Of a DNA stretch of 64,000 bases, positions 15,110 to 52,871 are shown one piece after another. The notes beneath the pieces were generated by a model. The model searched no databases. It saw only the letters and a list, made by a program, of their open reading frames with translations, and was not told where the DNA came from. The stretch is from Felis catus (lineage: Eukaryota). The stretch lies in contig NC_058382.1 of NCBI RefSeq assembly GCF_018350175.1, positions 51,958,001-52,022,000 on the forward strand, read 5' to 3'. Within the stretch, counting starts at the first letter, position 1. The number at the start of each line of letters is the position of its first letter. The translations under genes were made by a program, and so were the position numbers.

Positions 15110-15700
15110 GTGTCAAGGGGCGGGGAGGGGGGGTGGGCGGTGTGTGCAGGCTGGAGGGGAGGGGCCCTGCCCCGGGGTAGCGTAGTGGTTGCAGCAGCGC
15201 AAGATCCCTGGAAGGGATGGGCGCGGAGACCACGGGGCCCAACGGCAGCGCCTCGGCGCGGACACGGTGCTGGGCACGCGGCTGGCAGGGCTGCTGGTGG
15301 TGCCGGCCCGGGCGGCCGCGGACCGGCCGCGGAGGCAGCGCGCCTGCTGGGCTCTGCTGGTGGTAGGGCCCAGGCCGGTGGGGCTGACACGGCACTCGTC
15401 GCTGTCCGCTCGCGCGGGTGCTGAAGCTGACCCCGCAGGACGCGCTCGTCGGGCTCGCCGCAGGGGCGCCCGCAGCAGATGGCGCTGGACCCCGCCAATG
15501 TCCGCTACCTCTGGCCGAGAGGAGTGGATTTCGGCAACATGGAGGGCTGTTGGCGCAATGGTCACTTTTTCACTACTGGCGCTTCCAGGAGCCCCTGCTC
15601 GGCCTCCTGGAGAGGAAGGGGCAGCGGCCTAGTCTCTGCCTTCCCCTGCGCACCAAGGTGACGAGAGGCCTGGGAAAACATATCGCCCCTCGACCACCCC
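15110..15700. promoter_or_regulatory. Orphan CpG island over exon 1 of the pseudogene
   Basis: Very GC- and CpG-rich (e.g. gccggcccgggcggccgcggaccggccgcgg) within AT-rich surroundings; GC boxes (ggggcggggag, gggcgg) at about 15117-15140. Confidence 0.8.
15217..15657 (+). pseudogene. Exon 1 of a decayed FAD-dependent oxidoreductase/monooxygenase gene (Rossmann GxGxxG region)
   Basis: Strong Kozak ATG (GGGATGG) at 15217 in a CpG island. Across several frameshifts it reads ...ALLVVGPRPVGL/TALVAVRSR/VLKLTPQDALVG/RPQQMALDPANVRYLWPRGVDFGNMEGCWRNGHFFTTG/FQEPLLGLLERKGQRPSLCLPLRTK. VVGPRPVGL at 15360-15386 is two substitutions from VVGAGPVGL. Phase-0 donor AAG|gtgacg after 15657. Confidence 0.75.
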
Positions 15701-16299
15701 CAGCTCCAACACCAGCTGACCACAGGGGGCCAGTGACAACTGATGGACACGGCTGTCTTCTTTTCTTGCCAAATCAGCTTTTTGACAGACAGAAAGCAAT
15801 TCTATAACATTTGAAGATAGCTAGAAAGTGGAATAATACCCTTACTTCATTAAAGTTTATGTGGCAATTTTATGAGACAGTGCAGGTAGAAGGGCATGGC
15901 AGTCTGTTACTTATAGGAGAGGCTTAGAAAGTGAAAATTATCACCAGCTGCAAACTGATTTCCAAGAACTTAAGATAAAAGGGGCCTCATCTTTTTAGAA
16001 GCAAATGCTCAAAAATCAAATGACACGTGGCTCTGAGAAAAGAAATTTCCTGGGTATTCAGAGAACAAGGAGAAGAAGATTAAAATGACAGTAATTTTCC
16101 AAGGTGTAGATTTAGCCAGAATGAGCAACCCAAATCAGCCCATCAGCCCTAGAGTTTCTCTTTGAAGACTGAATGCTCAATTTTAATATTTGTCATCTTT
16201 TAGCATGGTTCATTTGGGGAAAAAAAAATCTAGGGTACTATTTAATCTTATAACAGTATGGCTTTTCCACTTATAAAAATTTACATGGCACAAGCCATG

Positions 16300-16548
16300 T
16301 TTTTTTTTTTAAGTGTTTTTATTCATTTTTGAGAGACAGAGACAGAGTGTGAGTGGGGGAGGGGCAGAGAGAGAGAGGGAAACACAGAATCCAAAGCAGG
16401 CTCCAGCCTCTGAGCCGTCAGCACAGAGCTCCATGTGGGGCTTGAACTGGTGAACCACGAGATCATGACCTGAGCCAAAGTTGGATGCTCAACTGACTGA
16501 GCCACCCAGGCGGCCCAAGCCATGTCTTCTTTAAAGGATTGTTTTAAT

Positions 16549-16600
<52 letters not shown>

Positions 16601-16726
16601 CCTAAACAAGCTCTGCACTGTCAGCACAGAGTCTGACACAGGTCTCAAACACACAAACCATGAGATCATGACCTGAGCCAAAATCAAGAGTCAGACACTT
16701 AACTGACTGAGCCACCTAGGCACCCC
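16300..16726 (-). mobile_element. Two tandem reverse CanSINEs
   Basis: Heads end at about 16516 and 16726; (GA)n tract at about 16555-16598; TSD caagccatgt around the first. Confidence 0.88.
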
Positions 16727-18366
16727 AAGAATTTTCTTAAAACAATTTTTTTCATTAAAAAAAAAAGAATTTTCTGAGTCCCAGTGTGGGCCATTCAAAT
16801 TTATTTAGTGATTTTTTTTTCCTTGTACATATTTTCATCTCACAATAACCATAGGATATGTGTTTTTACTATGTCATTTTAGCAATGGGGAAATTAAGGC
16901 TCAAAGAGATTAAGTAATTTGTTGAGGCCGCAAAGGTTGGAAGGTAATCAGTCAGGATTAAAATCCCTATCTGCATGGCTTCAGGGTCAGTTCTCTAACA
17001 CCACATGCTACCACTCCCTTCTGGGGGCATACTACAGGTTAAAATTAATATTAACATTAACATGGGGCTATATTATCTAACTAAGCTATTAGCACCCTTA
17101 ACATGTACTACCATATTTATGTAGATAAATCTGGAGAGCAGGCTCTCAAGGTCAAACACCCAAAGGAAATCAAGTACCAAGCAGGAATAACTCAGAAGAG
17201 ATTAATGTTGCTTATAGCTATAACTGACAGAACATTCACAGTAGTCAAAACCCAAACAGACTCTGGTCACATAAATCATCCTGTTCACATACCACAAATA
17301 GTTACTAAGTTTACAACAGAGCAGACACTATTGTAGATTTTTAGACACACAGCCATTAGCAAGCACATGAGATTGAAAAGGAATGCATTAAATTGTTAAT
17401 AAGCTGTTACTTCTGGATGAAGGATTTTATGGGTGAATTTTATTTTCTTCTTTGTGTTTTCCCTCTTTTACACACTTTCTAAAATGAGCAGATATATTAC
17501 TTTTAAATTGAGGAAAATGTTTTATATATGTAAGTGGACTTTAATGGACCAACTTATTTTGATACTTTTGTGCTTGTCAAACACATTTGACAGTTATACC
17601 CCCGACTCACTTGAGAGCTTAATATTTCAGTAACCAAGATTTCCATTGACCTAAGTGGCAGCCCACTTTGTAGAAAAAACAAAGACATTTTTAACAACCA
17701 CAGTGCAGCTACAGAGAAAGGGAAAAATAATCACGTGAAGCAGAGACTAGGTCTTAAGAACTTTTTCTTTTGCCAGTAACATGGATCTAGCCCCCAGAGA
17801 CCAGCTTCCACCCCAACTTACAACGTAGGGAGAAGGTTATAACCATGGAAACTCAACCTCAAAACAGTGGAGGAAAAACAGTCTACACGTATATAAATTT
17901 AATGAGAAAATTCTGACCAGAAGCAAAGTATCATACTCATTCTTCCCTCCTTTCGATTCTTTCAAGTATTTCCCACCAAGTTACTTCTGCCTAGCAATCT
18001 GTACACCACCAAAGAATAAGAGGTCAATCAAGAGATTTAAGTAAAGAATAAATGGATATATGGATTTGTAAGAAAACTTACAAAATCCAAGAGTCTTTTC
18101 CTAAATCCAAGAATTACCAAAGAAATTGACCCTACTTCTAGGCATCTTCCAAGAAGGACGTTCTTGCGAAATAACAATTTGAAACCTCATTAGACGTCTC
18201 CAATTTCCAACAAGGTGGAAATCTTCTTTTATGCTTAATTTACATTCTTTCTGCTGTCTTTGTAGCCCCCTCTCCCCGTCCACTACAGAAGCTTTCTGTT
18301 GCCTTTCTGTATTATAGAGTACCATTAACATGGCATTAGCTTTCTTTGCTGAGAAAGTATACATAG

Positions 18367-18367
<1 letters not shown>

Positions 18368-18400
<33 letters not shown>
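18368..18400. repeat. (TG)n microsatellite
   Basis: Directly visible. Confidence 0.95.
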
Positions 18401-18402
<2 letters not shown>

Positions 18403-18835
18403 CTTAATTGGGATGAGATCTGTGTAGTACCAGTAATGCAGAAAATGTGAAAAGCATAAGGCGCAAAAGTTTGCCATTGGAAAAATCAAAGCTCGGGGGC
18501 AAGTTAAGATCGGTATGTTAGCAATAACCCAATGATAGTAAAGATTGTGTTGGGGTCATAAATGTCTCTCTACAAATGTCAAGGGCATAGGCAGACATTT
18601 TATAAGCTCTGTGGTTATTTATTCAAGCATGTCTGGCCTGGCTGACCTAGAGCTTTTGGTATTTGTTGGCAATTTTCTATGTTAAGAAAATATTTTTTAA
18701 TCAGATGAACTTTATAGTGGTCAAAGGTCAAACAACTAATTAAAATTAACAGCAGCCCCAGTGAATGACTAACCAAAAACAAACTAAAGAGGGAGGTTAT
18801 CTCAAGTTGGCAGCTCTCTAAATGAAAGCGCTCTT

Positions 18836-19070
18836 GGGGCGCCTGTGTGGCTCGGTCGGTTAAGCGTCCAACTTCGGCTCAGGTCATGATCTCACGGTCC
18901 GTGGGTTTGAGCCCCACGTCAGGCTCTGTGCTGACCGCTCAAAGCCTGGAGCCTGTTTCGGATTCTGTTTCTCCCTCTCTCTGACCCTCCCCCGCTCATG
19001 TTCTGTCTCTCTCGTTCTCAAAAATAAATAAACGTTAAAAAAAATTAAAAAAATACTTTATAAAAAAAGA
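18836..19070 (+). mobile_element. CanSINE
   Basis: SINEC body; TSD gaaagcgctct on both sides. Confidence 0.9.
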
Positions 19071-21310
19071 AAGCGCTCTGACATTAGGCAATTAAACTTA
19101 CTTAACTGAACTGCCCAGAAATAAAAGGTTTTTGCAGTTTAGCAGAGGCTGGGATTTGGGTACAGAAAGAATAATTGCTCTTGATATTAGATGCAAAGCA
19201 ACAAAGTGATTAAGGCTCTGAGGTCAGTCAGACCTAGGTACAAAGTAAGGTTCCTAACTTGCTAGTTAACTAGCAAACTTGCTTAGTTAACTGGGGCAAG
19301 GTAACTTCTACAAGGTTCATCTTCTTATCTGTAGGTCTGTACCTGCCTCTATTGGTCATTATGACAGTTGAATTAGACAATGTCCATAGGGTCCTTAGCA
19401 GATGTCCGTAAGTATGCAATGGATGTTAGCTCTATTTTGTTCTTCATCCATCGTGAGCACATTTTCCCAACTGTAGAGAAGATGACACCCATACCCACAC
19501 ACACATACTCCACCCTGGGTATCTGCTGGATTCCCCAAGGGGCACAGAATAAAAGCCAAGCCCCTGGAGAGCATTCTCAGCTCCCCTGTAGCCAGGTGCT
19601 CAGATCCCAATCCCTGTGTGCTAACCTGCTAGGACAAGCATCCACGTAGAGGGGGAAAGTAGGATTCGTCAACCTGATCTCACACGTGGGCTCCACCAAT
19701 GACTAATTACCAGATGAAATAAAAGAAATTTCTTAACTTCTCAGGTACTCAGTGTCCTCCACTAAAAATTGGATATCCTTGGACAAAGCTCAAAGGATTA
19801 TTGTTGGAGATGAAATGGAATAAGATGTGTGGATATGTCAAGTACAATGTATGGCACGAAGTAGACATTTAGCTAGCACTGGTCAGTTTCCTGACACTGA
19901 GCGTTGGGGTAGCCCTGTTCTGAGGTCTCCCTATGCAGACCATGCACCTTTGGGGTGTTTCTAGTATAATCCACTAAGTGGAAACATATGCAGAACGTAG
20001 TAGTTTTATTTCCGCAAACACATAGCATGTGTGCTTAGTACACAGCAAATAATCATGCATTCTTAGTGTTAGACTTGAAAGTTAGGACTACAGAGGCAGC
20101 AGGGACAGAAATATGCTTTCATGCTATCATGTGAAGGCAGGCTGAGAAGACCACAAGGATGGAATACTCTATTAAATCATCTGAGTGGCACTGATAATCT
20201 CCTCGCTTCAGTTTCCTTTCCAGGAAAAAGAAGGAAGCCTAACTATTCTTCCCAGGCCTCTCAACTCTGAAAATTATTCCATGCTAGTCAGAGTTGACCT
20301 TTTCTTTCAAACAAATGGGGTGGGGAAACAGGGTAAAGTGGAGAGCCCTTATTTCAGCTCTGTCTTCTCTCCCTCATCCTCCTCTGATACTGTTGTTGCT
20401 GGGATAGGAACAGTCCTCCTCTCCCATGCTTAAAGTTAAAAGGAACTTCTAGGGTCTTGCTTGACCACTCACTGAGAATCCCTTACAAGAGAAAAGAGGA
20501 AGAGCCCCGATGTATAAGCAAGAACAAGTGCATGCATGGCATTTCTTAAATATGCTTCACCACTCATTTTCTATGTGACCAAGGACAAGTTCTTCAAATT
20601 CTCTGAGCCTTGGTCTTCTGGTTCATAAAAAGAATTGCCAGTTGAGGGAATGGACAATAGCAACCTCAGATTGTTGAGAGGCAAACAGGATAATATGTGC
20701 TTTTAGCCTCCTGACAAAACAAAAATGCTCAATAAATGTCACTTCCCCTTCCTTCTATTTAAGTCTCAAACAGACTGAAGACCTATTGAGATTATAGGTT
20801 ACCTTTTGTACACCACATAGACTCTGCATATCGCCTAGTAAAATACAGTATAGAAATATTTGTGGGATAGATGAAAATGCAAATAAGTATTTTAAAGCAA
20901 GGCAAAAGCTCTCAGCACAATGCCCAACTCTCCGATGCGCAGAAAAGACCAGAGTTGGGCCACCGGTGTATGGTTTAATCACCAGATGCATGGTAGTATG
21001 ATGGATTGCGATTTTCCATCTTGTTATCCTCATGGCATGCCAGAGATCCAGATTATCAACCCAAGACCAATTTTCAGCAAGATCAGGAAAAACTAAGAAG
21101 TGGATATATAAATGAAAAAAAAAAAAAGGTGGGGGGAGAGTTCAGGTTTGTTTTTTTTTTAAACCAATGGTCCTGTATTTTGTGGGGGGTTATGACGTCT
21201 ACCAGGGAAGCTTGAGTCTTCCTCCCATAAAACACTTATATTCACATACACTAACCATTTCAGGGGCCTTAGGAGCTCAAGTTGAGAATCCTCTATTTCG
21301 ATCTTTGGAA

Positions 21311-23421: not shown

Positions 23422-23599
23422 TTTACAGCTGATTTGATGAGGAAGGGTGTAGTGCTAGGCTGGCCCAAAATCATTGTGGTGGCTGATGGCTCCCATGGGG
23501 GAGACCTGCCGTGTGCTGGGGCTCAGTCCACATTACGTGGTCGAATCCTGCAACGCTTACGGAGCTAATGCCACCATCACAAGACTGGACCAGAGACAG
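23422..23599 (+). pseudogene. Exon 2 of the decayed flavoprotein gene (DG motif)
   Basis: Acceptor ctcactttgtgtcttag| and donor CAG|gtaagc. Length 178 = 59 codons + 1, explained by one extra G in the G5 run at 23497-23501. Reads FTADLMRKGVVLGWPKIIVVADGSHG/ETCRVLGLSPHYVVESCNAYGANATITRLDQRQ; IIVVADG...CRVLGL is the monooxygenase DG fingerprint. Phase 0-0. Confidence 0.8.
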
Positions 23600-27310: not shown

Positions 27311-30300
27311 ATAGACTGTGGGGATAGTTGTACTTTATAAACAAACAAACAAACAAATTAACAGTTGGATCCAAATTGTGTTTCTGACAGATAAAATAAG
27401 TTTACCTGCTCAGATGGCTGAAGTGTTTACTAATAATTATGGGAAAGACTTAAAGATTTTTCATCCACCTGAGTAGTTTTTTGTTTTTTGGACAAGAAAT
27501 ACCTCCCTGAAGTTTGCATTTCAAAGCTGGCTCTGGGTGCCTACGATGACATCTCAAAGGCACAGAGAAAAGATAAAAGTTCCTCCAAGAAGGGCTTTTG
27601 TTTCCTAAATCCCACTCTTTCACAATATTTGCAGGTCTTTGGAAATGAAGTGGGGAAGTCTGGAGATTGGTAAAGAGGATGGGTTTGCTTGAAAATGTGT
27701 CTATGGCCACATTTCTGTTCTTGTAAAGACTCGATTTGTAAGACCAGTACAGTTATTTTAATTCCTCAAAACACTGGTTTGCAACTGAAATCATATCCCA
27801 TCAAGACACTGGCCTGCCTACCCAACTACATTAGCCTTGATTTTGTATCAAGGAGAAGTTCTTCAACTAAGATGGAAATCAAAAGATCCCATGGTCCAGG
27901 GACACCTGGCTGGCTAGCTTCGTAGAGCATGTGACTCTTGATCTTGGGGTCATGAGTTCAAGCCTCACATTGGGCGTGGAGCTTACTTACAAATAAAAAA
28001 TTAGGGGATTGGATGGGGAGAAGATGGCAGCGACCGCGTCCTGCTGATCGCTTAGATTCCACCCACATCTGCCTAAATAACCCAGAAAACCGCCAGAAGA
28101 CTCGCAGAACGGACTCTCTGGAGGCATGTGTAGACAAAGGACCACGGAAGAGGGTAGGAAGGGCGGAGAGGCGGTGCGCGCTACCTGGACTGGCGGGAGG
28201 GGGCCGGCCGGTGGAGGGGCAGCCGGCCCTGCAAGGCAGAGCCCCCAAGTCTGGCTGGCAAAAGCGGAGGGGCCGGACTGTGTGAGTTCTGACAGCCAGA
28301 GGGACTTAACATCTGGAATGTTAAAAGTCAACAGCTCTGCTGGGAGAGCGGGAGGGCGAGAGGACAACAGGAGGGAGAGGTGTTGAGCCCCGGAAGACAG
28401 AACTCAGCTCGGCGGGGAACAAAGGTGCTCGCCAGCGCCATCTCCCTCTCCCATCCCCCAGCCAAAATCCCAAAGGGAACCAGTTCCCAGCAGTGAACTT
28501 GCTTGCACAGTGCAAACACCAACGCTGTGCTTCTGTGGATCCATCCCTCCGACGGATCTGCCTGCCTCCCTCCCGGTGCTGCTGGGCCCCTCCCTTCCCT
28601 GTGCACCTTGCAGATCCACCCCGACTAATACACCAGATCCCATCAAAGCAGCACCACAAGCCTGGGAGTGTGCAAGTAGCCCAGACAAGGGCCACACCAC
28701 TCCACAGTGAGTCCTGCACCTGGGAGGGGGGAAGATAAGGTACACACCAGTCTGACCGTGGCCCCAGCGGTGGGCTGGGGACAGACATCGGGTCTGACTG
28801 TGGCCCCGCCCACCAACGCAAGTTACTCCAGACAGTTTGGAGCCACCGCAGGGACTACTCAAAATGACACAACTGAAGAATTCTCCTCAAAGGAAACTCC
28901 AGGAAGTAGCAACAGCTAACGAATTGATCAAAAACGATTTAAGCGATATAACGGAACAAGTATTTAGAATAATAGTCATAAAATTAATCGCTGGGCTTGA
29001 AAAAAGTAGACAGGACAGCAGAGAATCTATTGCTTACAGAGATCAAGGGACTAAGAAACAGTCATGAGGAGCTAAAAAAATGCTATAAATGAGGTGCAAA
29101 ATAAAATGGAGGCAACCGCAGCTCGGATTGAAGAGGCAGAGGAGAGAATAGGTGAATTAGAAGACAAAATTATGGAAGAAGAGGAAGCTGAGAAAAAGAG
29201 AGATAAAAAAATCCAGGAGTATGAGGGGAGAATTAGAGAACTAAGTGATGCAATCAAATGGAACAATATCCATATCATTGGAATTCCAGGAGAAGAGAGA
29301 GAGAAAGGGGCTGAAGGTATACTTGAACAAATCATAGCTGAGAACTTCCCTGATCTGGGGAAGGAAACAGGCATTGAAAGCCAAGAGGCACAGAGAACTC
29401 CCTTCAGACGTAACTTGAATCGATCTTCTGCGCGACATATCATAGTGAAACTGGCAAAATACAAGGATGAAGAGAAAATTCTGAAAGCAGCTAGGGATAA
29501 ACACGCCCTAATTTACAAAGGGAAACCCATATGGCAGGCCAGAAAGGAATGGCAGGAAATATTCAATGTGATGAGCAGTAAAAATATGCAGCCGAGAATC
29601 CTTTATCCAGCAAGTCTGTCATTCAGAATAAAAGCAGAGATAAAGGTCTTCCCAAACAAACAAAAACTGAAGGAATTCATCACCAGTAAACCAGCCCTAC
29701 AAGAGATCCTAAGGGGGATTCTGTGAGTGAAATGTTGCAAGGACCACAAAGTACCAGAGACATCACTACAAGCATGAAACCTACAGACATCACAATGACT
29801 CTAAACCCATATCTTTCAACAATAACACTGAATGTAAATGGACTAAATGCTCCAACCAAAAGACATAGGGTATCAGAATGGATAAAAAAAACAAGACCCA
29901 TCTATTTGCTGTCTACAAGAGACTCCTTTTAGACCTGAGGACACCTTCATATGGAAAGTGAGGGGATGGAGAACTATCTATCATGCTACTGGAAGTCAAA
30001 AGAAAGCTGGAGTAGCCATACTTATATCAGACAAACTACACTTTAAATTAAAGGTTGTAACAAGAGATGAAGCAGGGCATTATATAATAATTACAGGGTC
30101 TATCCATCAGGAAGAGCTAACAATTATAAATGTCTATGCACCGAATATGAGTGCCCCCAAGTATATAAAGCAATTAATCACAAACATAAGCAACCTTATT
30201 GATAAGAATGTGGTAATTGCAGGGGACTTTAATACTTCACTTACAACAATGGATAGATCATCTAGACACAGGATCAAGAAACAAGGGCCCTGAATGATAC

Positions 30301-33300
30301 ATTGGACCAGATGGACTTGACAGATATATTTAGAACTCTGCATCCCAAAGCAACAGAATATACTTTCTTCTTGAGTGCACATGGAACATTCTCCAAGATA
30401 GATCACACACTGGGTCACAAAACAGCCCTTCTTAAGTATAAAAGAATTGAGATCATACCATGCATACCTTCAGACCACAATGCTATGAAGCTTGAAATCA
30501 ACCACAGAAAAAAGTCTGGAAAACCTCCAAAAGCATGGAGGTTAAAGAACACCCTACTAAAGAATGAATGGGTCAACCAGGCAATTAGAAAAGAAATTAA
30601 AAAATACATGGAAACAAATGAAAATGAAAATACAACAATCCAAATGCTTTGGGATGCAGCAAAGGCAGTCCTGAGAGGAAAATACATTACAATCCAGGCC
30701 TATCTTAAGAAACAAGAAAAATCCCAAATACAAAATCTAACAGCACACCTAAAGGAAATAGAAGCAGAACAGCAAAGACACCCCAAACCCAGCAGAAGAA
30801 GAGAAATAATAAAGATCAGAGCAGAAATAAGTAATTCATAATCTAAACAAACTGTAGAGCAGATCAATGAAACCAAGAGTTTGTTTTTTGAAAACATAAA
30901 CAAAATTGATAAACCTCTAGCCAGGCTTCTCAAAAAGAAAAGGGAGATGACCCAAATAGATAAAATCATGAATGAAAATGGAATTATTACAACCAATCCC
31001 TCAGAAATATAAGCAATTATCAGGGAATACTATGAAAAATTATTTGCCAACAAACTGGACAACCTGGAAGAAATGGACAAATTCCTAAGCATCCACACAC
31101 TTCCAAAACTTAAACAGGAAGAAATAGAAAACTTGAACAGACCCATAACCAGCGAAGAAATTGAATCAGTTATCAAAAATCTCCCAACAAATAAGAGTCC
31201 AGGACCAGATGGCTTCCCAGGGGAATTCTACCAGACATTTAAAGCAGAGATAATACCTATCCTTCTTAAGCTGTTGCAAAAAATACAAAGGGAAGGAAAA
31301 CTTCCAGAATCATTCTATGAAGCCAGCATTACTTTGATTCCAGACAGAGACCCAGCAAAAAAAGAGAACTCCAGGCCAATATCCCTGATGAATATGGATG
31401 CAAAAATTCTCAATAAGATACTAGCAAATTGAATTCAACAGCATATAAAAAGAATTATACACCATGATCAAGTGGGATCCTGGGCTGCAGGGCTGGTTCA
31501 ACATTTGCAAATCAAGCAATGTGATACATCACATTAATAAAAGAAAAGATAAGAACCATATGATCCTGTCTATCAATACAGAAAAAGCATTTGACAAAAT
31601 TCAGCATCCTTTCTTAATAAAAACCCTCAAGAAAGTTGGTATAGAAGGAACATACTTAAACATCATAAAAGCCATTTATGAAAAGCCCACAGCTAAGATC
31701 ATCCTCAATGTGGAAAAACTGAGAGCTTTCCCCCTGAGATCAGGAACGCGACAGGGACGTCCACTCTCACCGTTGTTGCTTAACATAGTGTTGGAAGTGC
31801 TAGCATCAGCAATCAGACAACAAAAGGAAATCAAAGGCATCAAAATTGGCAATGATGATGTCAAGCTTTCACTTTCTGCAGATGACATAATTTACATGGA
31901 AAACCTGATAGACTCCACCAAAAGTCTGCTAGAACTGATACATGAATTCAGCAAAGTCGCAGGATACAAAATCAATGTACAGAAATCAGTTGCATTCTTA
32001 TACACTAACAATGAAGCAACAGAAAGACAAATAAAGAAACTGATCCCATTCACAATTGCACCAAGAATCATAAAATACCTAGGAATAAACCTAACCAAAG
32101 ATGTAAAAGATCTGTATGCTGAAAACTATAGAAAGCTAATGAAGGAAATTGAAGACATACAGAAATGGAAAAACATTCCATGCTCATGGATTGGAAGAAT
32201 AAATATTGTCAAAATGTCAATACTACCCAAAGCATCTACACATTCAATGCAATCCCAATCAAAACTGCATTGGCATTCTTCTCGAAGCTAGAACAAGCAA
32301 TCCTAAAATTTGCATAGAACCACAAAAGATCCCAAATAGCCAAAGTAATTTTGAAGAAGACCAAAGCAGGAAGCATCACAATCCCAGACTTTAGCCTCTA
32401 CTACAAAGCTGTAATCAAGACAGCATGGTACTGGCACAAAAACAGACCCATAAACCAGTGGAATAGAATAGAAACCCCAGAATTAGACCCACAAAAGTAT
32501 GGCCAACTAATCTTTGACAAAGCAGGAAAGAATATCCAATGGAAAAAAGACAATCTCTTTAACAAATGGTGCTGGGAGAACTGGACAGCAACATGCAGAA
32601 GGATGAAACTAGACCACTTTCTCACACCATTCACAAAAAAAACCACATCAAAATGGATAAAGGACTTGAATGTGAGACAGGAAACCATCAAAATCCTAGA
32701 GGAGAAAGCAGGAAAAAACCTCTCTGACCTCAGCTGCAGCAATTTCTTACTTGACACATCCCCAAAGGCAAGGCAATTAAAAGCAAAAATGAACTATTGG
32801 GATCTCATGAAGATAAAAAGCTTCTGCACTGCCAAGGAAACAATCAGCAAAACTAAAAGGCAACCACCGGAATGGGAAAAGATATTCGCAAATGACATAT
32901 CGGACAAAGGGCTAGTATCCAAAATCTATAAAGACCTCACCAAACTCCACACCCGAAAAACAAATAATCCAGTGAAGAAATGGGCAGAAAACATGAATAG
33001 ACACTTCTCTAAAGAAGACATCCAGATGGCCAACAGGCACATGAAAAGTTGCTCAACATCACTCCTCATCAGGGAAACACAAATCAAAACCACACTGAGA
33101 TACCACCTCACGCCAGTCAGAGTGGCTAAAATGAACAAATCAGGAGACTATAGATGCTGGTGAGGATGTGGAGAAAAGGGAACCCTCTTGCACTGTTGGT
33201 GGGAATGCAAACTGGTGTAGCCGCTCTGGAAAACAGTGTGGAGGTTCCTCAGAAAATTAAAAATAGATCTAACCTATGACCCAGCAGTAGCACTGCTAGG

Positions 33301-35580
33301 AATTTACCCAAGGGATACAGGAGTACTGATGCATAGGGGCACTTGTACCCCAATGTTTATAGCAGCACTTTCAACAATAGCCAAATTATGGAAACAGCCT
33401 AAATGTCCATCAACTGATGAATGGATAAAGAAATTGTGGTTTATATACACCATGAAATACTACATGGCAATGAGAAAGAATGAATTATGGCCTTTTGTAG
33501 CACCATGGATGGAACTGGAGAGTGTTATGCTAAGTGAAATTAGTCATAAAGAGAAAGACAGATACCATATGTTTTCACTCTTATGTGAATCCTGAGAAAC
33601 TTAACAGAAGACCATGGGGGAGGGGAAGGAAAAGAAAAAGGTTAGAGAGGGAGGGAGACAAAACATAAGAGACTCTTAAAAACTGAGAACAAACTGAGGG
33701 TTGATGGGGGGTGGGAGGGAGGGGAGGGTGGGTGATGGGTATTGAGGAGGGCACCTGTTGGGATGAACACTGGGTGTTGCATGGAAACCAATTTGACAAT
33801 AAATTTCATATTTAAAAAAAATTTTTAAATTAAAATAAAAAAATTAAATTAAAAAAAAAGAAATACTTAAAAAAATAATTCTATGCTCTAGATTTAGAGT
33901 TGTGTTTCTTCAGAATTTTTAGTAAGTACTTCCACAAGGCTTTCCCTCTGGGTATAGAGTTTCATTTTAGCTTAAGGGAGAAGGCTTAAGAAAAGTTCCT
34001 ACAGGCTCTGAATATCAGCTTCCAATCCGGCCAATTTATGACCCTAGAGCTACTTAAAAACAACAACAACAACAACACCTTTTGAACATATTGGAATACA
34101 TTGTCAGGTTTCACCTGGGACAAACAGTAAATATTCCTGGCAATAGTGAACAACCCCATGGACACAGGGGAAGGTGCAAGAGAAGGTCCCCAAAGAAGAT
34201 GCAAAGGATACTGCCCTCGCAGATGCAGAGCCAGTCCTAGAGAAAACTGAAAGACCAAGGAATTCCTCTTGAGAGCTGGCAACGGTTGGTAGGACCCTGG
34301 CCACAAACGGGCTACCGTCCCCATTTCTGTCTGGCCGTATTTTGGGAGCCTCCAATCTGACAGCACCCAAACCAAATTCTCGGCACACAAAACGAGACAG
34401 CAAGAGCCGTCCTTGGGAGAGAAAGGATTGATAACCAATATTTTTTTCCTGCCAATTCGAATTTGGAAAGGAAGAGACAACATGAAATTTTACCTTCCTC
34501 TCTCGACCACGCACTACAGGTAGGGATCTGGGATCCCTGCCTTTGATAAGAATTCTTACCCTTTGCTGTCTTCTGCCAGTTTTCCAAGGATGCTGCCTTC
34601 AGGCTCCAGAGTGAGTGGGGTATCCCAGCAAGTCTCATCCTGGTCACCAGAAACTACAGAGAAGGAAAAAATAATTTTCCCTCTACCCTTTATACTGAGG
34701 GCCTGACTGAGACCCTTTTTTTCCTCCCGGAGCACCTTGTAACTGGTAAGCCTAGGTTAAAAGTTCTCCCTCGTGGCCACTGTAATTCAAAATTATCTTC
34801 GGTGCGGTTAATCGGCTTGTTCAGTCTTAAAACAAAATGTTAATACCTGAGGACCCACACTGGACCCAGGTCACTCTGACTTGGAACCAGTCTGATTCTA
34901 GATTCAGTGCAGTTTCTAACCAGAAGCAGTCCAGCCCTGGAGCCAGTCTGACCCTGGACCCAGCTGGTTTCTAAGTCAGAACCAGTCTGACACCGGACCT
35001 ATCCAGTTTCTAAATCAGGTTCGGTCTGACTCCAGGGGCTTTCCGGATTGTCTGGAAAAAAAAAAAAAAAAAGCTCAAATAGCCTGAAAGCTCTTAACAC
35101 AACAGGATCCAAGTGGGATGGGCCCACCACCTCCGGGGCAGCCACAGCAGCGAGCTCAAGGGATCCCGCAGGTACCATCATCTGGTGACTCTTGGTCCCA
35201 GGGGATGTTGGGGATCTCCTTGGGTTCCCTGACACTAGAACTATTAAAAGATAATGTGAGGCACATTAACAATTTTATGACTTTTATTTGAGCAAAACTG
35301 CTTTGAGTGGGCGGTGTGAAACCAGGTGTGGCTAGGAGCACTTTAATGGGAGCTCAGAGAGGCTTGGGTAGAGCAAAGGTGGACGCAGGGTAAGGCTGTG
35401 GTCGATTGGCTAAAGCTTAAAGCTTACAGCCTCGTGGGCTGTTTGTAGGTAGGTTGTCCTTAGTGTTTTGACTTCCTAACCCCGAGGCAGTTACAAGCTT
35501 AGATTTTGATTTGCTTACCTAAAGCCGCCAAGGCTTCAGAGCCAATTCGGTGTCATGGCCTCCTTGTTCCATGAACGCTG
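24590..35580 (-). mobile_element. Degenerate ERV internal and LTR sequence (ERV1/MER4-group-like) on the minus strand, interrupted by SINEs and the L1
   Basis: AT-rich non-coding ERV-internal-like sequence on both sides of the L1. PBS-like motifs on the minus strand at 34632-34649 (TGGTGACCAGGATGAGAC) and 35221-35237 (TAGTGTCAGGGAACCCA), each followed on the + strand by LTR-like sequence. Family and boundaries are approximate. Confidence 0.55.
28004..33846 (+). mobile_element. Full-length LINE-1 (carnivore/felid type), retrotransposition-incompetent
   Basis: GC-rich 5'UTR from ggggattggatggggagaagatggc. ORF1 remnants 28864-29726 (coiled coil, RHIIVKLAKYKD, QPRILYPA). ORF2 remnants 29795-33595 (endonuclease [38 protein letters not shown]-terminal cysteine-rich region) broken by several stops and frameshifts. 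A-rich tail; near-identical TSD aaataaaaaatta (27991-28003) / aaataaaaaaatta (33833-33846). Confidence 0.96.
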
Positions 35581-40112: not shown

Positions 40113-40149
<37 letters not shown>

Positions 40150-40152
<3 letters not shown>

Positions 40153-41400: not shown

Positions 41401-41968
41401 GAGTAACACATGAGATGGCATGAGTCACCGAACTTCTGCCAACTGCTTCATCTGTTTATGGAGGACTACGTTGCTCACATCCCAGACTCAATCTGCTACT
41501 ATTGCCAAAGGCTCGTTTCCCTCCCCCTCCAAAGATAGTATAGAATAATTCAGAGAAGAAAACGCCTGACTTTATTAATGCTTAGGCAGAACAAGTATCT
41601 TCCAACTGGTGGGTTAAATGTACACCTACAGATTAAAATAAAATTGGAAGAGACACAGTACTTGATACAATTTGAGCAAGAAATCTGTTCAATTTTAACA
41701 TTGTGAAAATAAGCATTTAAATAACTAGGTTATATTTAAGGAACATAGGAATTGTTGATTATTACCTAACTACCCGTACTATATCTTATGTATATTAATA
41801 ACTATGCACTCATCCACTCATTGAGCCTTTATTGAGTGCCTACTATTTTCTAGGTACTACTCTAAGAAGTGGGTGTGGGAAGATACTATATCTTCCAGCC
41901 CCCAAAGCAATGGTTCACAATCGTATGGCATTCTGTAGCTGCTATGTGATCTTGAGGGAAAATGTTTC

Positions 41969-43345
41969 TGGCACAAAAACAGACACTCAGATCAGTGGAA
42001 CAGAATACAGAACCCAGAAAGGGACCCACAAACACATGGCCAACTAATCTTTGACAAAGTAGGAAGGAATATCCAATGGAATAAAGACAGTCTCTTCAGA
42101 AAGTGGTGCTGGGAAAATGGGACAGCAACATGCAGAAGAATGAACCTGGACCACTTTCTTACGCCACACACAAAAATAAACTCAAAATGGATGAAAGACC
42201 TCAATGTAAGACAGGAAGCCATCAAAATCCTTGAGGAGAAAGCAGGCAAAAACCTCTTTGATCTTGCCCGTAGCAACTTCTTACTCAACATGTCTCTGGA
42301 GGCAAGGGAAACAAAAACAAAAATGAACAATTGGGACCTCATCAACATAAAAAGCTTCTGCACAGCAAATGAGACAATCAGCAAAACTAAAAGGCAACCA
42401 ACGTAATAGGAGAAGATATTTACAAATGACATCTAGAAAGAACTTATCCAAGTCAACACCCAAAAAACAATCCAGTGAAGAAATGGGCAAAAGACATGAA
42501 TAGACACTTTTCCAAAGAAGACATCCAGATGACCAACCGACACATAAAAAATGCTCAACATCACTCATCGTCAGGGAAATACAAATCAAAACTACAATGA
42601 GATACCACCTGACACCTGTCAGAATGGCTAACATGAACAACTCAGGCAACAACAGATGTTGGCGAGGATGTGGAGAAAGAGGATCTCTTTTGCATTGTTG
42701 GTGGGAATGCAAACTGGTGCAGCCACTCTGGAAAACAGTATGGAGGTTCCTCAAAAAACTAAAAATAGAACGACCCTATGACCCAGCAATTGCACTACTA
42801 GGCATTTATCCAAGGGATACAGGTATGCTGTTTTAAAGAGACACATGCACTCCAATGTTTATAGCAGCGCTACTGACAATAGCCAAAGTATGGAAAGAGC
42901 TCAAATGTCCATCGATGGATGAATGGATAAAGAAAATGTGGTGTATATATCTCCAATGGAGTATTACTTGGCAATCAAAAAGAATGAAATCTTGCCATTT
43001 GCAACGACGTGGATGGAACTGGAGGGTATTATGCTAAGCGAAATGAGTTCAGAGAAAGACAAGTATCATATGACTTCACTCATAGGAGGACTTTAAGATA
43101 CAAAACAGATGAACATAAGGGAAGGGAAGTGAAAATAATATAAAAACAGGGAGAGGGACAAAACAGAAGAGACTCTTAAATATGGAGAACAAACAGAGAG
43201 TTGCTAGAGGGGTTGTGGGAGGGGGGATGGGCTAAATGGGTAAGGGGCACTAAGGAAGCTACTCCTGAAATCACTGTTGCACTATATGCTAACTAACTTG
43301 GATGTAAATTAAAAAACAAATTAAATTAAATAAAAGGAAAAAGAA
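41969..43345 (+). mobile_element. 5'-truncated LINE-1 (ORF2 3' end, 3'UTR, A-rich tail)
   Basis: ORF2 C-terminal peptides [63 protein letters not shown]-rich end at about 43310-43345. Confidence 0.93.
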
Positions 43346-44216: not shown

Positions 44217-44501
44217 AAACTCAAACACATCTTGACTCTTTATCCACTTTACTGAGCCACACTGGTAACTCTGGTTTGGGGCCTAGACTTAGGGTTCTAG
44301 ACTGCACCCTTTCTCTCTTGGTATCCACAGAGCCTAATGCCACGTCTAGCACATGCTGGGCTCTCAGCCGATGCTAGTTGAAATAACAAGCAATAACCAT
44401 GTGAGTCGATCCGTGCCAGACCTGTGGTCAGAATCAACTAGAAAGCTCTGTTGTCATAACTGTTTTTCTCCACCATCTCCCTAACCTGCTTCTGCCTCCA
44501 G

Positions 44502-44735
44502 ATGCCCACACCAGAAACCTGAGCCCACAGCCTCTACCTGGATCTCTCTCTGCCTATGGGGTCGAGGTCACCTATGTAAGGAAGGAATCCCCGAGCTCAC
44601 ATCAGGCAGTCAAACAGCTGGGTTTCCACCCGAAAACCTATGGAACCTTCTGCCACTGATATATGGCTTTGGCGTGTCCGGCTTCTGATTCCAATGTTGT
44701 GAGATTTCTCTGCCATACTCTCTCTCAGCCCCTCA
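44502..44735 (+). pseudogene. Exon 3 of the decayed flavoprotein gene
   Basis: Textbook acceptor (ctaac branch point, pyrimidine tract, tccag|). Reads MPTPET*AHSLYLDLS/AYGVEVTYVRKESPSSHQAVKQLGFHPKTYGTFCH*YMALACPASDSNVVRFLCHTLSQP. TGA stops at 44520 and 44657 are consistent with CGA>TGA; +2 slip in a (CT)n run at 44550-44551; a further shift near the 3' end is needed for a phase-0 junction. The donor appears mutated (ataagt at 44736-44741). Confidence 0.72.
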
Positions 44736-46895
44736 ATAAGTACAAGGAGAACAGGGTAGAGACGTCTTTGCTCTTCATTGTCTAAGAAACTCTAGAGTAC
44801 TTTAAACTTCCCTTTGTGTGTCTTTCATTTTCAAATAAACATTGTCATCAACACTTCTGTTATATAAAAATATGTCAGTGGCATTTATTGATTTCTAACA
44901 AGCAGTTCTGTAACTCTGCCCCCAGAGAGGAAAAAAAAAAGTGTTTCCAGGCACAATATTGGTAAATACAACCTTGACGATGTCTCAGTGTCTGTGGGTC
45001 AGGGATCTAGGTATGGCTTAGCTGATTCCCTCTGGCTCAGCATGGCTCTCAAGGCTGTAGTGAAGGTGGAGGCTGGGCCTGCCCTCATCTCAAGGCTTAA
45101 CTGGGGTCCGTGTGTGGATGTGTGGTTGTGGAGTGTGAATCAAGCTCCCTTGTAAGGCTCTTGTCGGGAGCCCACAGGCCTTCTCATAAGATAGCTCATA
45201 ACATGCCTTCCCTCAGTCAGGGTGACTGAGCAAAGGGGGAGAGAGGCCGGACACCCAGGATGGAAGTCACAGTCTATGACCTAATTCCAGAAGAGACGTT
45301 CCACGTCTTCCGCCATATTGTATTCTTTAGAAGAGAGTTGATCAGTTGAGTCCACATTAAAGGGCAGGTATAACTCAAGACTGTGAATACCAGATGGGGG
45401 TCTTTGAGGCATCTTAGATTCTGCCTTTCATGCCCCGGGAGCACACATCAGGGCTGTCCCTAATCAATACACAAAACTACTACAATGTTAGGCTAAATAG
45501 CTCAAAAGCATATTGGATTATTTTCCTGGGCTTATTGTTAATAAAAAAATCATTAAGAATAAAATATATTTGGGGGGAAGAAAAGGAAAAGGGAAAAAAG
45601 GAATTAGTTTTAATTCCTCTATACGTACCCACTTGTATTTTTGCCTCGGTTCTTATCCAAATGTATAAATATTTTTACATGCTTACAATTCTCTTGGTGC
45701 CCTGTGTTTTTACACATAGCATCATATAGCATCATATACCCATAGCATCATAAAGCATGTTTCTAGAGACTCTTCGTAATCATGATTTTAGCAGGCTGGA
45801 AGTCCTTATTACCCCAAGATCGTTTGGTGTCTTAAAATGAGGACTTCGGCCCCATTGATAAGTAACCAAAATTGTGTTATCAATGGAGGGGAAGCTGTGG
45901 CTATAAATTATGACAGTAAGTTCATTGTATGTGATATTTGCCCAAATGTAGGCCATGATAGCAACTCTGCAGAATTTTAGAAAGAAAAATGAGTCAAATG
46001 TTAATTTGGAGGGGGGGAGGGATGGTTAATTTTCCTGCAAAATTATACAACAGCATTACCAACCTTGTCCTTCACAACTGTCTTCCACATTAGGAACACA
46101 AAGAAGGTCTCACTGGCAAAAATGATATTCAAGAACCTCATGAATTTTGATCAGTAGTCTTTTTTTTTTTTTTAGCCCCATAATCCAATATATTTATTTG
46201 TTAACTCAATTGTTAACTAGTGTGCTTCTGTGGGTTCCTTTGCCCACACTTGAAGCAGATCTCTGAAATAACCGGCATAGATTTCATGAAAGCTCACACT
46301 TTTGGGAAGACTTGCAATTCTGCTTTGTAAAAAATTTCCATTGATTGTGTTTGCCTCATGCTGTTAGAGATTCACTACGGCTGACTATCAGTCAGATCAA
46401 CCAAAAAGATATGGGGGGTAGGCAGGGATAAGTTAGAAGTCACTGTTAATGAGGAAGCAACACTTAAATGGTATTTTATAAGTGCTGAATTCATTACTGA
46501 ACATTTTCATAGCATGATGTTTTTTCCCTTGGAATCACACTTGTCTCCCTTGGCTGCACACCGTATTTTTGGTGCCAGTATTTCTTCTAATGTATTTCCT
46601 CCTGTGGATGCACCATGAGAGTGGGTGGCCAGGCGTTCTTTGATGCCTAGGAAACTTCTCTTTTCCTCACTCAGCATCGGCACCACACAAGCACACACAC
46701 TCAGCTTCCTCCTTGCTAATGCAGTCATGACTGTGTTCATGGGATTTTTGGAACTGGCTTCCCCCTGGCCCTAGGGTGAGGGTGAATCTCCTTCAGTCTA
46801 ACTCAAAAATCAGAATGCTGTCCCCCTTGCTAGTCAATGGTCAATTCAAGGATGAATATGTGGTGTGATTCTGGCCAGGGAGGGGTGTCCTGGAC

Positions 46896-47144
46896 GATTT
46901 CCCTCATTCTTTTTTTTTCAACGTTTTTTTTTTTTTTATTTTTGGGACAGAGAGAGACAGAGCATGAACGGGGGAGGGGCAGAGAGAGAGGGAGACACAG
47001 AATCGGAAGGAGGCTCCAGGCTCTGAGCCATCAGCCCAGAGCCCGACGCGGGGCTCGAACTCACGGACCGCGAGATCGTGACCTGGCTGAAGTCGGATGC
47101 TTAACCGACTGCGCCACCCAGGCGCCCTGATTTCCCTCATTCTT
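46896..47144 (-). mobile_element. Young CanSINE with a perfect 16-bp TSD
   Basis: TSD gatttccctcattctt at 46896-46911 and 47129-47144; CpG-rich body. Confidence 0.93.
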
Positions 47145-47389
47145 GAGTGGGGACACAAGAAAAGGGATGCTCTCTTTTCCTGCCTCTGCATATTCTCGCT
47201 TTCGGGCAGTGGCAGCAACCTCGGAACCGGGAATGGACCCAGTGCAAGAAGAGAAGCTAATGTTCCGAAGAGGACAGCAGACTGAAAAGATAAAAAGAAT
47301 GTGGGTCCTTAAATTACCAGCCCTGAAACCACTCCAAATCAGGCATTCTGGTTACCAGAGATATTTTTGTCCTAACTGTATAAGCAGCT

Positions 47390-47631
47390 TCTTTCTTTCT
47401 TTTTTTTTTTTTAAGTTTGTTTATTTTGAGAGAAAGACAGCGCGAGCGGGGGAGGAGCAGAGAGAGAGAGAGAGAGCAGGAGGAGGGGCGGGGAGAGCGA
47501 GAATCCCGAGCAGGCTCCACACCATCAGTGCACAGCCTGACACGGGGCTTGAACTCAGGAACGGTGGGATCACGACCTAACCTGAGATCAAGAGTCTGCC
47601 GCCTAACCAACTGAGCCACCCAGGTGCCCCC
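47390..47631 (-). mobile_element. CanSINE
   Basis: Reverse SINEC ending gagccacccaggtgcccc. Confidence 0.87.
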
Positions 47632-49277
47632 AAGATCCAGGCTCTTCTGTTCGTCTGTCCAGCCAGGTCCAGTGTCCCCGTAGTATCTCCGTCCTGCTGC
47701 CTCAAGTCCACACACCAGGCCCTCACATCACAGACTTCCAAGTAGAATGCAAACTCTCTTTTCCAAAGCCCCTCTCTTTCCGGGAGGAAAAACCTCTTCA
47801 GAAATTCTCAAGAGACTTTCCCTCATATCTCATTGGCCAGAACTGGGTTACGTGCTGATCCACTGACCTATCACTAGCAAAGAGAAGGCGTGACCTTGAT
47901 TAACTTGGATGATGGAGGTTTACTTGCTGGGGTGGTGCACTTTGCTTCCAGATAAATGCTGGGTTCCCTGAGCAAGGAGGAGGGGAATAGCTATTAGTGT
48001 GTGTCCCGCTAGAATCTGCACTGACGTGAATCGCAACGCGCCTGCAAAAATGCTTCACCTTGGAAGCTCCTCTTACCTGCTAACAGAAGACACCGAATCG
48101 GAGGCCAGTGTCCCTGGCAGATGCATTTTTAGGTTATCCCCAGCTCCTTTTTCTCCCCTTCTTGCTTTAGCTCTTGATACTGTAACACAGAGACGGGTTC
48201 TTTGCTGAGCGCGGATGAAGATTTTTCCCTCCTGGGATGAAGTGTACTGGTGTCTACAGAAGAAAATTTCTCAAATGAGTCACCTCAAAATGTAATGGGC
48301 CTGTGTAGGCTGTCGCCCAGCTCATCCATTAAATCTTTAATTCTGGGCCAAAGTAATCCACGCGTAGGATAAGTTAGTTTAGGTGCCCTTTCCACCCAGG
48401 GTCTGCCGAAGACAGTTTCAGACACGTGAAACCATTCTCAATACACAATCTGCAGTTAATGAAAATGCGTCTACCTTTATTTTTTGTGTGATGCGCTAAG
48501 AGACAGAGAAACTTTCCTCGGATGGAGGTAGGGAAGGAAATGGGAGTTGTATGCAGGATGCAATAAAGCAGGTGCAACAAATACATCTATCTGTCCCAGC
48601 AGATGATAAATTCCTTAAAGGCAGGGACTACGTCTAAGAGGCCACTGAACGTTGGGGCCTGATTTCAAAGGCAAGTTTTGCCGCTTACGGTGTGATCTTT
48701 GGAAACTGGCCTCCCCTCTCTGTATCTCAGCTCATCTCAATAATCAGGACAGAAAAAAGCACGAACTTCATAGGGGGATTCTTTTATAGGAAGTAATGTC
48801 AGAAACAAACTATATGAAATAGACATCGAATCTGAACCTGTTTTGTATAGAGGACTTTGACAGTCTGAGAAACCTACAGAAACCCTCTCAGGATTGTGCT
48901 TTTAAAATACAGTTATCAATTAAAAAAAATGCACGAGTAGAATATATGTGCTTCTTTCACAATGCATGATATAAGATCTAGCGACATAAGATATAAGTTT
49001 TATAACTTGGTTAATTTCAAAGATGTGATAAGCATACACAATGCTTGGGATTTCTGCACCAACCATGATGTCATTTGAAAACACCCAGCATTTTTATTGG
49101 ACATGAAGTTGTGGGTATCACAGTGACTACATTCACAATGGAAGGAAAAGCTACATTCCATTTAGAGGCTGTATCAAAAGAGTTGTAATTTTTTTTTCTG
49201 GTGTCACATTAAGAACCAAATACAGACTGGCATTTTCTTTATTATTAACCTATCATAAGCAACATTTTAGATAAGTG

Positions 49278-49870
49278 GGGTACCTGGGTTGTTCAGTGGG
49301 ATAAGCATCCAACTCTTTTTTTTTAATGTTTATTTATTTTTATTTTTTTTCAACGTTTATTTATTTTTGGGACAGAGAGAGACAGAGCATGAACGGGGAA
49401 GGGGCAGAGAGAGAGGGAGACACAGAATTGGAAACAGGCTCCAGGCTCTGAGCCATCAGCCCAGAGCCTGACACGGGGCTCGAACTCACGGACCGCGAGA
49501 TCGTGACCTGGCTGAAGTCGGATGCTTAACCGACTGCGCCACCCAGGCGCCCCTATTTATTTATTTTTAAAAGAAAGAGAGAGAGAGAGAGCGAGCATGT
49601 GTCCAGGAGCAGCAGAGAGAGAGAGAGAGAGAGAGACTCCCAAGCAGGCTCCACGCTATCAGCCCAGAGCCCCACACAGGGCTCGATCTCACAGACCATG
49701 AGATCATGACCTGAGCTGAAATCAAGAGTTGGAGGCTTAACCAATTGAGCCACCCAGGAGCCCCCAGCACCCGACTCGATCTCAACTTGGGTCTTGATCG
49801 CAGGGTTGTGAGTTCAAGCCCCACACTGGACTCTGTCCTGGGTGCAAAGCCTACTTAAAAATTTTTTTTG
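49278..49870. mobile_element. Triple-nested CanSINEs
   Basis: A plus-strand SINE is split at agca(t/c)c(c)(a/g)actc (TSD 49304-49315 / 49766-49777) by a minus SINE whose tail is split by a younger minus SINE. Confidence 0.85.
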
Positions 49871-50043
49871 AGATAACTTTAATTATCATACCCATCCTCC
49901 ACCAGCATCAGTTATGGGAAATTCCATTCATCTCCTGGCTTGTTGTTAAAAATCATGTGGAGGAACATAGTTTTGTCAGCCTGGCTGATGGGTTTCCTGG
50001 AGCAGAGACCCAGGCTCTTAAGTCTCTTGCCTTTTCCTTATAG

Positions 50044-50256
50044 ATAATGAAGACCATCTTCCATCAAGCATTCAACACCTTCAAGATGGATATTGAGCCC
50101 CGCGCACGGGATGCTGCAATGTGTCTGGGGCAGTGTAGCAGAAGGCTGTTTGAGATCACATGGTCCCAGAGGCGGGCCACCGCTGCCTACATCCAGGGTG
50201 AAGCCAGGGTGGTCACCATGGAGGGGGTGCAGCTCAAGTGCTCAACTTTGACACGG
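50044..50256 (+). pseudogene. Exon 4 of the decayed flavoprotein gene (GD motif)
   Basis: Acceptor gtctcttgccttttccttatag| and donor CGG|gtaagc. Reads IMKTIFHQAFNTFKMDIEPRARDAAMCLGQCSRRLFEITWSQRRATAAYIQGEARVVTMEG/xAAQVLNFDTG. Restoring one base at 50227-50228 (GT>GAT) gives VVTMEGDAAQVLNFDTG, the GD fingerprint. Phase 0-1. Confidence 0.8.
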
Positions 50257-52846: not shown

Positions 52847-52871
52847 GACACATACACACACACAGACAGAT

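Follow-up and report, generated by a model that had tools for sequence, protein, structure and literature searches.

The closest described systems to the locus reported here are the group A flavoprotein monooxygenases of the p-hydroxybenzoate hydroxylase (PHBH) type (PHBH/PraI, UbiH, PqsL, and HspB; Pfam FAD_binding_3), the kynurenine-pathway enzyme KMO, which is a stand-alone animal flavin monooxygenase held by a single C-terminal membrane anchor, and the MICAL proteins, in which a monooxygenase domain is accompanied by CH, LIM, and other domains. With regard to gene fate, the nearest parallels are the classical unitary pseudogenes of mammals, such as those left by the GULO or uricase losses. 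Here, we describe a 64-kb stretch of the Felis catus genome (contig NC_058382.1, positions 51,958,001 to 52,022,000; hereafter the window, in whose coordinates all positions are given) that very probably holds a unitary pseudogene, this genome's only and long-dead copy of a five-exon gene, named si:dkey-234i14.6 in zebrafish, which where intact encodes a predicted flavin monooxygenase. As in the GULO- and uricase-type losses, a single-copy ancestral enzyme gene has decayed in place with its introns kept and no functional copy left; in contrast to them, the lost enzyme belongs to an orphan family, and the decay seems to have occurred several times, as suggested by gene models from seal, fox, and sugar glider.

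A tblastn search of the window with the intact American black bear protein P0006 gave matches exclusively on the plus strand and in protein order, with E values of 1.3e-16 for the best piece of exon 1, 3.4e-22 for exon 2, 1.9e-23 for exon 3, and 4.4e-25 for exon 4. These are the four segments of the original prediction, which was made from the letters of the window alone and placed a hidden multi-exon flavoenzyme pseudogene at 15217..50256. That range holds for four exons but is too short for the gene, as the same search also matched 57200-57262, exposing the remnant of a fifth coding exon that had been overlooked. The five remnants, with the number of aligned codons identical to bear P0006, are as follows.

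15217..15657, plus strand: exon 1 remnant, 100 of 144 codons
23422..23599, plus strand: exon 2 remnant with the DG motif IIVVADGSHG, 52 of 59 codons
44502..44731, plus strand: exon 3 remnant with the animal-specific conserved segment VPTPEIRAH...HLKIYGTFRNRY, 55 of 76 codons
50044..50258, plus strand: exon 4 remnant, with the GD-type motif MEG-AAQVLNFDTG at its 3' end, 58 of 71 codons
57200..57265, plus strand: exon 5 remnant, the last 21 codons RHLKQGAEDFKQNSLLTTVFQ and the TGA stop, 16 of 21 codons

Lesions were called by a frameshift-aware alignment of the assembly sequence to P0006, and the exon borders were inspected for AG and GT dinucleotides. Exon 1 carries the start ATG, the predicted N-terminal membrane-anchor helix, the Rossmann GxGxxG motif (now GPRPVG), and the QQIALDP...FL segment. 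The exon has suffered five frameshifts (-1, -1, -1, -2, and -1 near 15259, 15390, 15413, 15442, and 15581, respectively) and the deletion of three single codons; its donor GT at 15658 is kept. The actual open frame from its ATG closes after 49 codons, with the stop at 15366. Exon 2 retains its acceptor AG and donor GT and has a one-base insertion at 23497, whereas exon 3 has kept its acceptor AG and lost its donor, which reads CT at 44732; this exon also has TGA codons at 44520 and 44657, each at a position that is Arg in the bear protein, and a two-base insertion at 44544. Exon 4, which ends in phase 1, retains AG and GT and has a one-base deletion near 50227. The first 37 codons of exon 5 and its acceptor were not found in the six frames of 50259-57200, where the best local score was 30 and on the wrong strand. 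The assembly sequence thus holds 8 frameshifts, 2 TGA stops, 1 lost donor, and a gap of 37 exon 5 codons. The frameshift and stop counts of the original prediction agree with this alignment, in which only the placement of the fourth exon 1 frameshift is ambiguous, and the single mutated donor and the phases of 0, 0, 0, and 1 that it gave agree with the border inspection. In the sequence of events that we propose, purifying selection ceased in the lineage of the window, after which frameshifts, nonsense mutations of the CpG type, loss of the splice donor, and loss of part of an exon accumulated; because of these lesions, no enzyme can be made.

The conceptual translation of the window was also compared with an alignment of 41 intact orthologs that contains 111 invariant columns. 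The window keeps 86 of these, changes 14 (including R263, now a stop), and lacks 11; among the columns conserved in at least 90% of sequences, it keeps 72, changes 32 (including G55R, at the second glycine of GxGxxG), and lacks 11. When intact proteins were left out one at a time, the number of invariant columns changed was 0 for bear, 0 for horse, and 0 and 1 for two turtles. With turtle as the outgroup, 51 lineage-unique replacements are found in the window versus 9 in bear (chi-square, ~29), and the same comparison for horse gives 15 versus 10 in bear; identity to the bear protein is 281/369 for the window and 333/377 for horse. With commonly used neutral rates, the time since selection on the gene ended would be, as an order of magnitude, tens of millions of years. 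The claim that the gene is broken in this lineage is therefore borne out by the relaxed constraint as well as by the lesions.

These data bear on whether the gene could be functional, with the lesions being errors of sequencing or assembly in a GC-rich region, which we consider very improbable. Five of the eight frameshifts do lie in exon 1, where the guanine-plus-cytosine (GC) content is 0.68 to 0.77, and they sum to -6 bases, so that the frame is restored at the exon end. However, errors of insertion or deletion are unable to yield the stops, the donor change, the exon 5 gap, or the amino acid replacements: both TGA codons arise by substitution at a conserved Arg, the exon 3 donor reads CT, 37 codons of exon 5 are absent, and the replacements extend to 14 of the 111 invariant residues, to G55R in GxGxxG, and to the excess of unique changes over bear. 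Moreover, in the run index, 14 DNA runs from 5 studies contain 0.96-0.97 of the sampled words of the exon 3-4 region (44300-50400), and one further run, whose kind is not recorded, brings the number of studies to six; such words cannot confirm single-base lesions.

Orthology was first evident from exon 4. Its frame (50044-50382, residues 1-72), searched on its own among longer proteins, returned 10 proteins, with E values of 7e-22 to 1e-11 for those of horse, bear, and fish; exon after exon, the sequences of these proteins closely resemble the originally reconstructed peptide. It is 80% identical both to an "uncharacterized protein" of horse and donkey (E, ~8e-22) and to American black bear "WWOX isoform" proteins, 66% identical to an arctic fox hypothetical protein, and 59 to 61% identical to fish si:dkey-234i14.6. 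The four segments are collinear, exon by exon, with the intact horse and bear proteins of 414 to 417 amino acids and the fish proteins of ~420 amino acids. Furthermore, the bear isoforms P0002 and P0003 and the horse isoform P0001 lack precisely exon 3 or exon 2 and otherwise equal the full protein, and because these exon-skipping isoforms place the borders identically, the exon borders of the pseudogene are real. The view of the original prediction that the introns speak against a retrocopy is sustained.

A chance assembly of motifs through free choice of frame, an origin of the segments from transposons, or a retrocopy has accordingly become a practically negligible explanation. Single fragments do look unpromising: 11 single-frame fragments of the window gave no Pfam family even at an E value of ≤10, phmmer comparison of four window fragments with the PDB gave chance matches only (E ≥ 0.17) and no flavoprotein, and the interval is full of pieces of short interspersed nuclear elements (SINEs) and L1. 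The chance reading was in fact clearly favored over a real gene at first, in view of eight frame changes and two read-through stops, and was overturned by the exon 4 frame matches. Against it stand the exon-by-exon E values of 1e-16 to 4e-25 against bear at 69 to 88% identity, the presence of introns with splice borders the same as those in the bear and horse isoforms, and the fact that the family matches a single place in the genome. The last of these comes from a six-frame search of the 2.43-Gb assembly (71 contigs) with P0006, which gave five matching places, all at this locus, from 11 candidates scored; only the best candidates were scored in this search, and a very divergent copy could escape it. 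Because P0006 matches nowhere else in the 2.43-Gb genome, the locus is very probably a unitary pseudogene, and as the sole match for the family protein it is not a repeat.

We note that the Ursus americanus records P0002, P0003, P0006, and P0131 carry the NCBI name "WW domain-containing oxidoreductase isoform X1/X5/X6/X7," yet have no WW or dehydrogenase sequence. This looks like a gene model merged with neighboring WWOX, and these bear records are a different protein from the one they are named for. The label on the bear records suggests that the intact orthologs may lie next to WWOX.

The family to which the pseudogene belongs is old and broadly retained. Searching proteins of near length with bear P0006 gave 193 proteins, and the 120 listed, at 59 to 73% identity, come from sharks, rays, a chimaera, sturgeon, bichir, lungfish, teleosts, caecilians, salamanders, frogs, turtles, and squamates. 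The bear and shark proteins are 65 to 67% identical, and alignment columns average 73% identity over 41 species, sharks and bears included. By this measure, the family ranks with the more strongly conserved proteins of vertebrates. When 1.84 billion representatives were searched with a profile, 239 matches were obtained at an E value of ≤1e-3, and because these are so few, the family is isolated in sequence space. This search added full-length members from starfish, snail, and scallop, as well as distant proteins of 388 to 599 amino acids (E, 6.6e-18 to 5.5e-14), among which P0254, P0260, P0251, and P0277 are full-length relatives at 24 to 27% identity. Scans of representative genomes of bacteria and archaea, of viral contigs, and of JGI metagenome contigs confirmed no locus for these four, which are perhaps from protists. 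Apart from chordate clusters of the family itself, the ESM Atlas contributed generic clusters of bacterial FAD-binding proteins and gave no fresh lead. With intact orthologs from sharks to turtles, horses, and bears, and members in starfish and mollusks, the proposal of an ancestral, uncharacterized gene is well founded.

Survival of the gene among mammals is patchy, and its retention in some of them formed no part of the original prediction. Among mammals, database records show intact proteins of 414 to 417 amino acids in four species of Equus, in the black rhinoceros, and in two species of Ursus. No bird, primate, rodent, bat, or cetartiodactyl name is present among the matches listed (120 of the 193 of near length and 120 shorter ones, with 32 more unlisted), which is a gap in annotation and does not prove that the gene is missing; an alligator fragment is among them. 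Three other mammalian gene models look decayed. The grey seal model P0147 (214 amino acids) has the GxGxxG segment deleted and contains out-of-frame stretches, the arctic fox model P0007 (249 amino acids) is without exon 1 and exon 3, and the sugar glider model P0153 (426 amino acids) has only degenerate parts resembling exons 1, 4, and 5. These models point to repeated, independent loss in mammals, and because bears are intact, decay would have occurred more than once within the Carnivora.

The intact proteins carry motifs of the PHBH-type fold, in part as the original prediction had it. An alignment of 49 sequences that includes distant relatives shows no variation at G53, P56, and G58 of GxGxxG, and at least 90% of its sequences have G55; in the window the motif reads GPRPVG, with the second Gly replaced by Arg. 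The domain also has an acidic residue closing the second strand. The DG motif (D174 and G175) is invariant in all 49 sequences, distant relatives included, and the window keeps ADGSHG. The third of the predicted fingerprints, GD, is GE in the vertebrate orthologs and is present as GD in distant relatives: the region reads EGDA[AV]R in the distant relatives and starfish, continuing as ...F.SG.G.N in the distant relatives, and EGEAAR in snail, scallop, and vertebrates (EGEAARVLNFDTGCGVN in the last), with Glu for Asp at a fitting position and in fitting surroundings. Vertebrates and distant relatives share GxGPxGL, RxQQ(I/V)xL...S..FL, DG, and EG(D/E)AAR...G.G.N.

Sequence links from the family to known families are weak. 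Scores against Pfam FAD_binding_3 (cut-off, 22 bits) are 22.5 bits for horse, 21.3 for bear, 20.7 for P0008, and 19.5 for Gadus, over the first 59 to 108 profile positions only, and no match to this profile was seen for starfish, snail, or scallop; most of the listed family members are without a Pfam assignment. The distant relatives P0251 and P0277 do pass (30.3 and 26.1 bits, over 255 to 307 profile positions), and hhalign joins the vertebrate profile to P0251 with a probability of 99.3 (E, 2.5e-20; 335 columns). A profile search of the PDB with the ortholog alignment gave only N-terminal Rossmann matches, at E ≥ 0.022, in keeping with the earlier statement that the protein is not KMO, COQ6, SQLE, or MICAL by sequence.

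Two features set the animal members apart from their distant relatives. In eight of the nine animal members scanned, a 19-residue hydropathy maximum of 1.9 to 2.7 lies ahead of GxGPxGL (in turtle P0011, the maximum is on the Rossmann strand itself), and the hydrophobic stretch is modeled as a helix that spans residues 11-44 in bear. In contrast, three distant relatives that were examined have no N-terminal hydrophobic segment and begin at the Rossmann motif. The second feature is DQRQVPTPEIRAH, residues 208-220 of bear P0006, which spans the exon 2/3 junction (23590-23599 plus 44502-44531 in the window), is largely invariant in the 41 vertebrate orthologs and absent from the distant relatives, and is modeled with low confidence; a functional loop specific to animals is a possible reading of it.

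A structural model built from a 49-sequence alignment to which distant relatives had been added has a predicted local distance difference test (pLDDT) score of 81.1 and a predicted template modeling score (pTM) of 0.79. Foldseek gave at least 500 matches to this model at E ≤ 1e-3, and the 50 listed are group A or E flavin monooxygenases (VibMO1 at 1.7e-13, StyA, rat KMO, human MICAL1 and MICAL3, and UbiH). In VIA-align, PraI/PHBH is aligned over 297 residues with a Z score of 22.1 and a root mean square deviation of 4.4, and 980 of 1,000 realigned chains have Z scores of at least 8. The model thereby supports the class A monooxygenase fold that had been proposed from motifs, and on its strength the intact protein is predicted to be an N-terminally anchored group A flavoprotein monooxygenase-like enzyme. 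It is similar to the group A enzymes in its fold over residues 47-413 (Z scores of 21 to 22 over ~297 residues), in having GxGxxG and DG (with GD in the distant relatives), and in the size of its catalytic part, ~370 amino acids. It is unlike them in that identity is only 13 to 17%, the Pfam threshold is reached on the N-terminal 60 to 100 residues of some animal members only, the animal members add the N-terminal anchor helix and the invariant insert, and vertebrates have GE for GD.

The similarity to the two animal enzymes is of the same kind. Rat KMO matches the model in Foldseek with E values of 1.7e-12 to 3.4e-12 and template modeling (TM) scores of 0.51 to 0.54, bacterial KMO has a VIA-align Z score of 20.6, and the present family would share with KMO the form of a stand-alone, single-pass membrane-anchored animal flavin monooxygenase, its own anchor being predicted. 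The anchor is N-terminal here, however, and no KMO sequence match was found at E ≤ 10 in the PDB profile search. The MICAL monooxygenase domain matches with Foldseek E values of ~1.4e-11 to 3e-11 and a TM score of 0.53, and mouse MICAL with a VIA-align Z score of 20.0, but the present family has no CH, LIM, or other MICAL domains and gave no sequence-level MICAL match in the PDB searches; the likeness is at the level of class and not of family.

Several observations weigh against reading the locus as the remains of a conventional flavin monooxygenase gene that fell silent long ago. The CpG island at exon 1 is still intact, which is unexpected for a long-silent locus, and the run index does not speak to individual single-base lesions. 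An earlier structural model from 41 close orthologs was poor (pLDDT, 57), giving Foldseek TM scores of 0.2 to 0.37, and was discarded. Styrene monooxygenases of the two-component kind (group E) are among the top Foldseek rows for the second model, and flavin halogenases are found in VIA-align with Z scores of ~21. The animal proteins themselves score only marginally in Pfam, and only in their N-terminal part (19.5 to 22.5 bits, against the cut-off of 22), and vertebrates carry Glu at the Asp position of the GD motif. A search of the literature, from which ~1.7 million PubMed Central articles and all subscription-only papers fall outside, found no functional, activity, cofactor, location, or expression data for any family member.

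Because styrene monooxygenases and halogenases also match the model, the chemistry is not fixed by the fold. The intact family could comprise two-component, group E-like monooxygenases, halogenase-like enzymes, or noncatalytic proteins with a flavin fold, a possibility that we doubt but take seriously. StyA and VibMO1 are among the best Foldseek rows, VIA-align gives Z scores of 20.8 to 21.1 for two halogenases, CmlS and CndH, and the vertebrate GE and the animal-only invariant insert DQRQVPTPEIRAH, modeled with low confidence, are further points in its favor. Nevertheless, the best VIA-align rows are one-component enzymes of the PHBH type, with Z scores of 21 to 22, GxGxxG and DG are kept throughout the 49 sequences, and no tryptophan-rich motif of the halogenase type is seen by eye in the alignment.

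Where the gene is intact, its product of ~415 amino acids is predicted to have one hydrophobic anchor helix at the N terminus and, after it, a compact flavin domain of the p-hydroxybenzoate hydroxylase type. In the most likely mechanism, the enzyme would be membrane tethered, bind flavin adenine dinucleotide (FAD), be reduced by NAD(P)H, and use O2 to hydroxylate or epoxidize a small substrate, probably a hydrophobic or aromatic one. The original interpretation is largely right, and the pseudogene would represent the loss of a metabolic function. More broadly, and as a tentative proposal to which we give slightly less than even chances, si:dkey-234i14.6 may define a family of membrane-anchored flavin monooxygenases that spans the Bilateria, has gone unrecognized, and acts on an essential and conserved small-molecule substrate, with DQRQVPTPEIRAH as part of a new substrate or partner site. 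In this view, mammals have discarded the enzyme repeatedly, in the present carnivore, in seal and fox, in a marsupial, and perhaps in most other mammals, and horses, rhinoceroses, and bears have kept it. Were this so, a whole metabolic step would differ between mammalian orders and would so far have been overlooked. A pseudogene is an ordinary kind of object, but this one points to a deeply conserved and unstudied orphan enzyme family, and its patchy mammalian survival (intact in Equus, rhinoceros, and Ursus; decayed in this carnivore, seal, fox, and sugar glider) is a natural experiment in which presence or absence, correlated with diet or metabolism, could hint at the substrate. In the searchable literature we found nothing relevant on a pseudogene between CLEC3A and WWOX, on a unitary pseudogene near CLEC3A, on an FAD-dependent monooxygenase lost in mammals near WWOX, or on six LOC identifiers of the orthologs. 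One article names dkey-234i14.6, and there only because no other gene is closer to a CpG site whose methylation was assayed (PMC5389146).

The window DNA is of mammalian, carnivore type and is rich in elements that we take to be tRNA-derived SINEs and in L1-like reading frames. Features other than the exon remnants are as follows.

7984-8397, plus strand: C-type lectin exon (Pfam Lectin_C, E 1.4e-17; nearest solved relative tetranectin, E 6.7e-43)
15000..15800, no strand: CpG-rich island over dead exon 1 (in 15200-15599, GC content of 0.68 to 0.77 and CpG observed/expected of 0.83 to 0.92)
57020..57130, plus strand: element with an A-rich tail, presumably a tRNA-derived SINE, directly upstream of the exon 5 remnant and at the expected site of the 5' part of exon 5
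62347-62454, plus strand: ATG and first half of a WW domain, the probable first coding exon of WWOX (best PDB match, Itch WW domain, E 3.9e-15)

The lectin exon and the half-WW exon fit CLEC3A and WWOX as the flanking genes, names that we assume from general knowledge together with the label on the bear record. The putative WWOX exon lies ~5 kb downstream of the pseudogene stop on the same strand, and the surrounding 62000-64000 is GC rich.

Persistence of the island over exon 1 points to a promoter that has stayed unmethylated and may still be active. The coding part being dead, the locus might live on as a noncoding unit, with the island driving a long noncoding RNA or an upstream alternative start of WWOX; we regard this as unlikely. 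Its CpG observed/expected ratio has been kept despite coding decay, and the filing of the bear flavin proteins by NCBI as WWOX "isoforms" hints at transcripts that join both loci, although this label may be purely an annotation artifact. The RNA runs in which the region occurs are metatranscriptomes that cover 57 to 80% of a mostly intronic 6.1-kb stretch; such coverage fits carry-over of DNA or unspliced RNA and is not counted as expression. Intron 2 of the pseudogene also contains long L1-like reading frames at 29076-33600 and 41900-43100, both on the plus strand, which by eye resemble endonuclease and reverse transcriptase.

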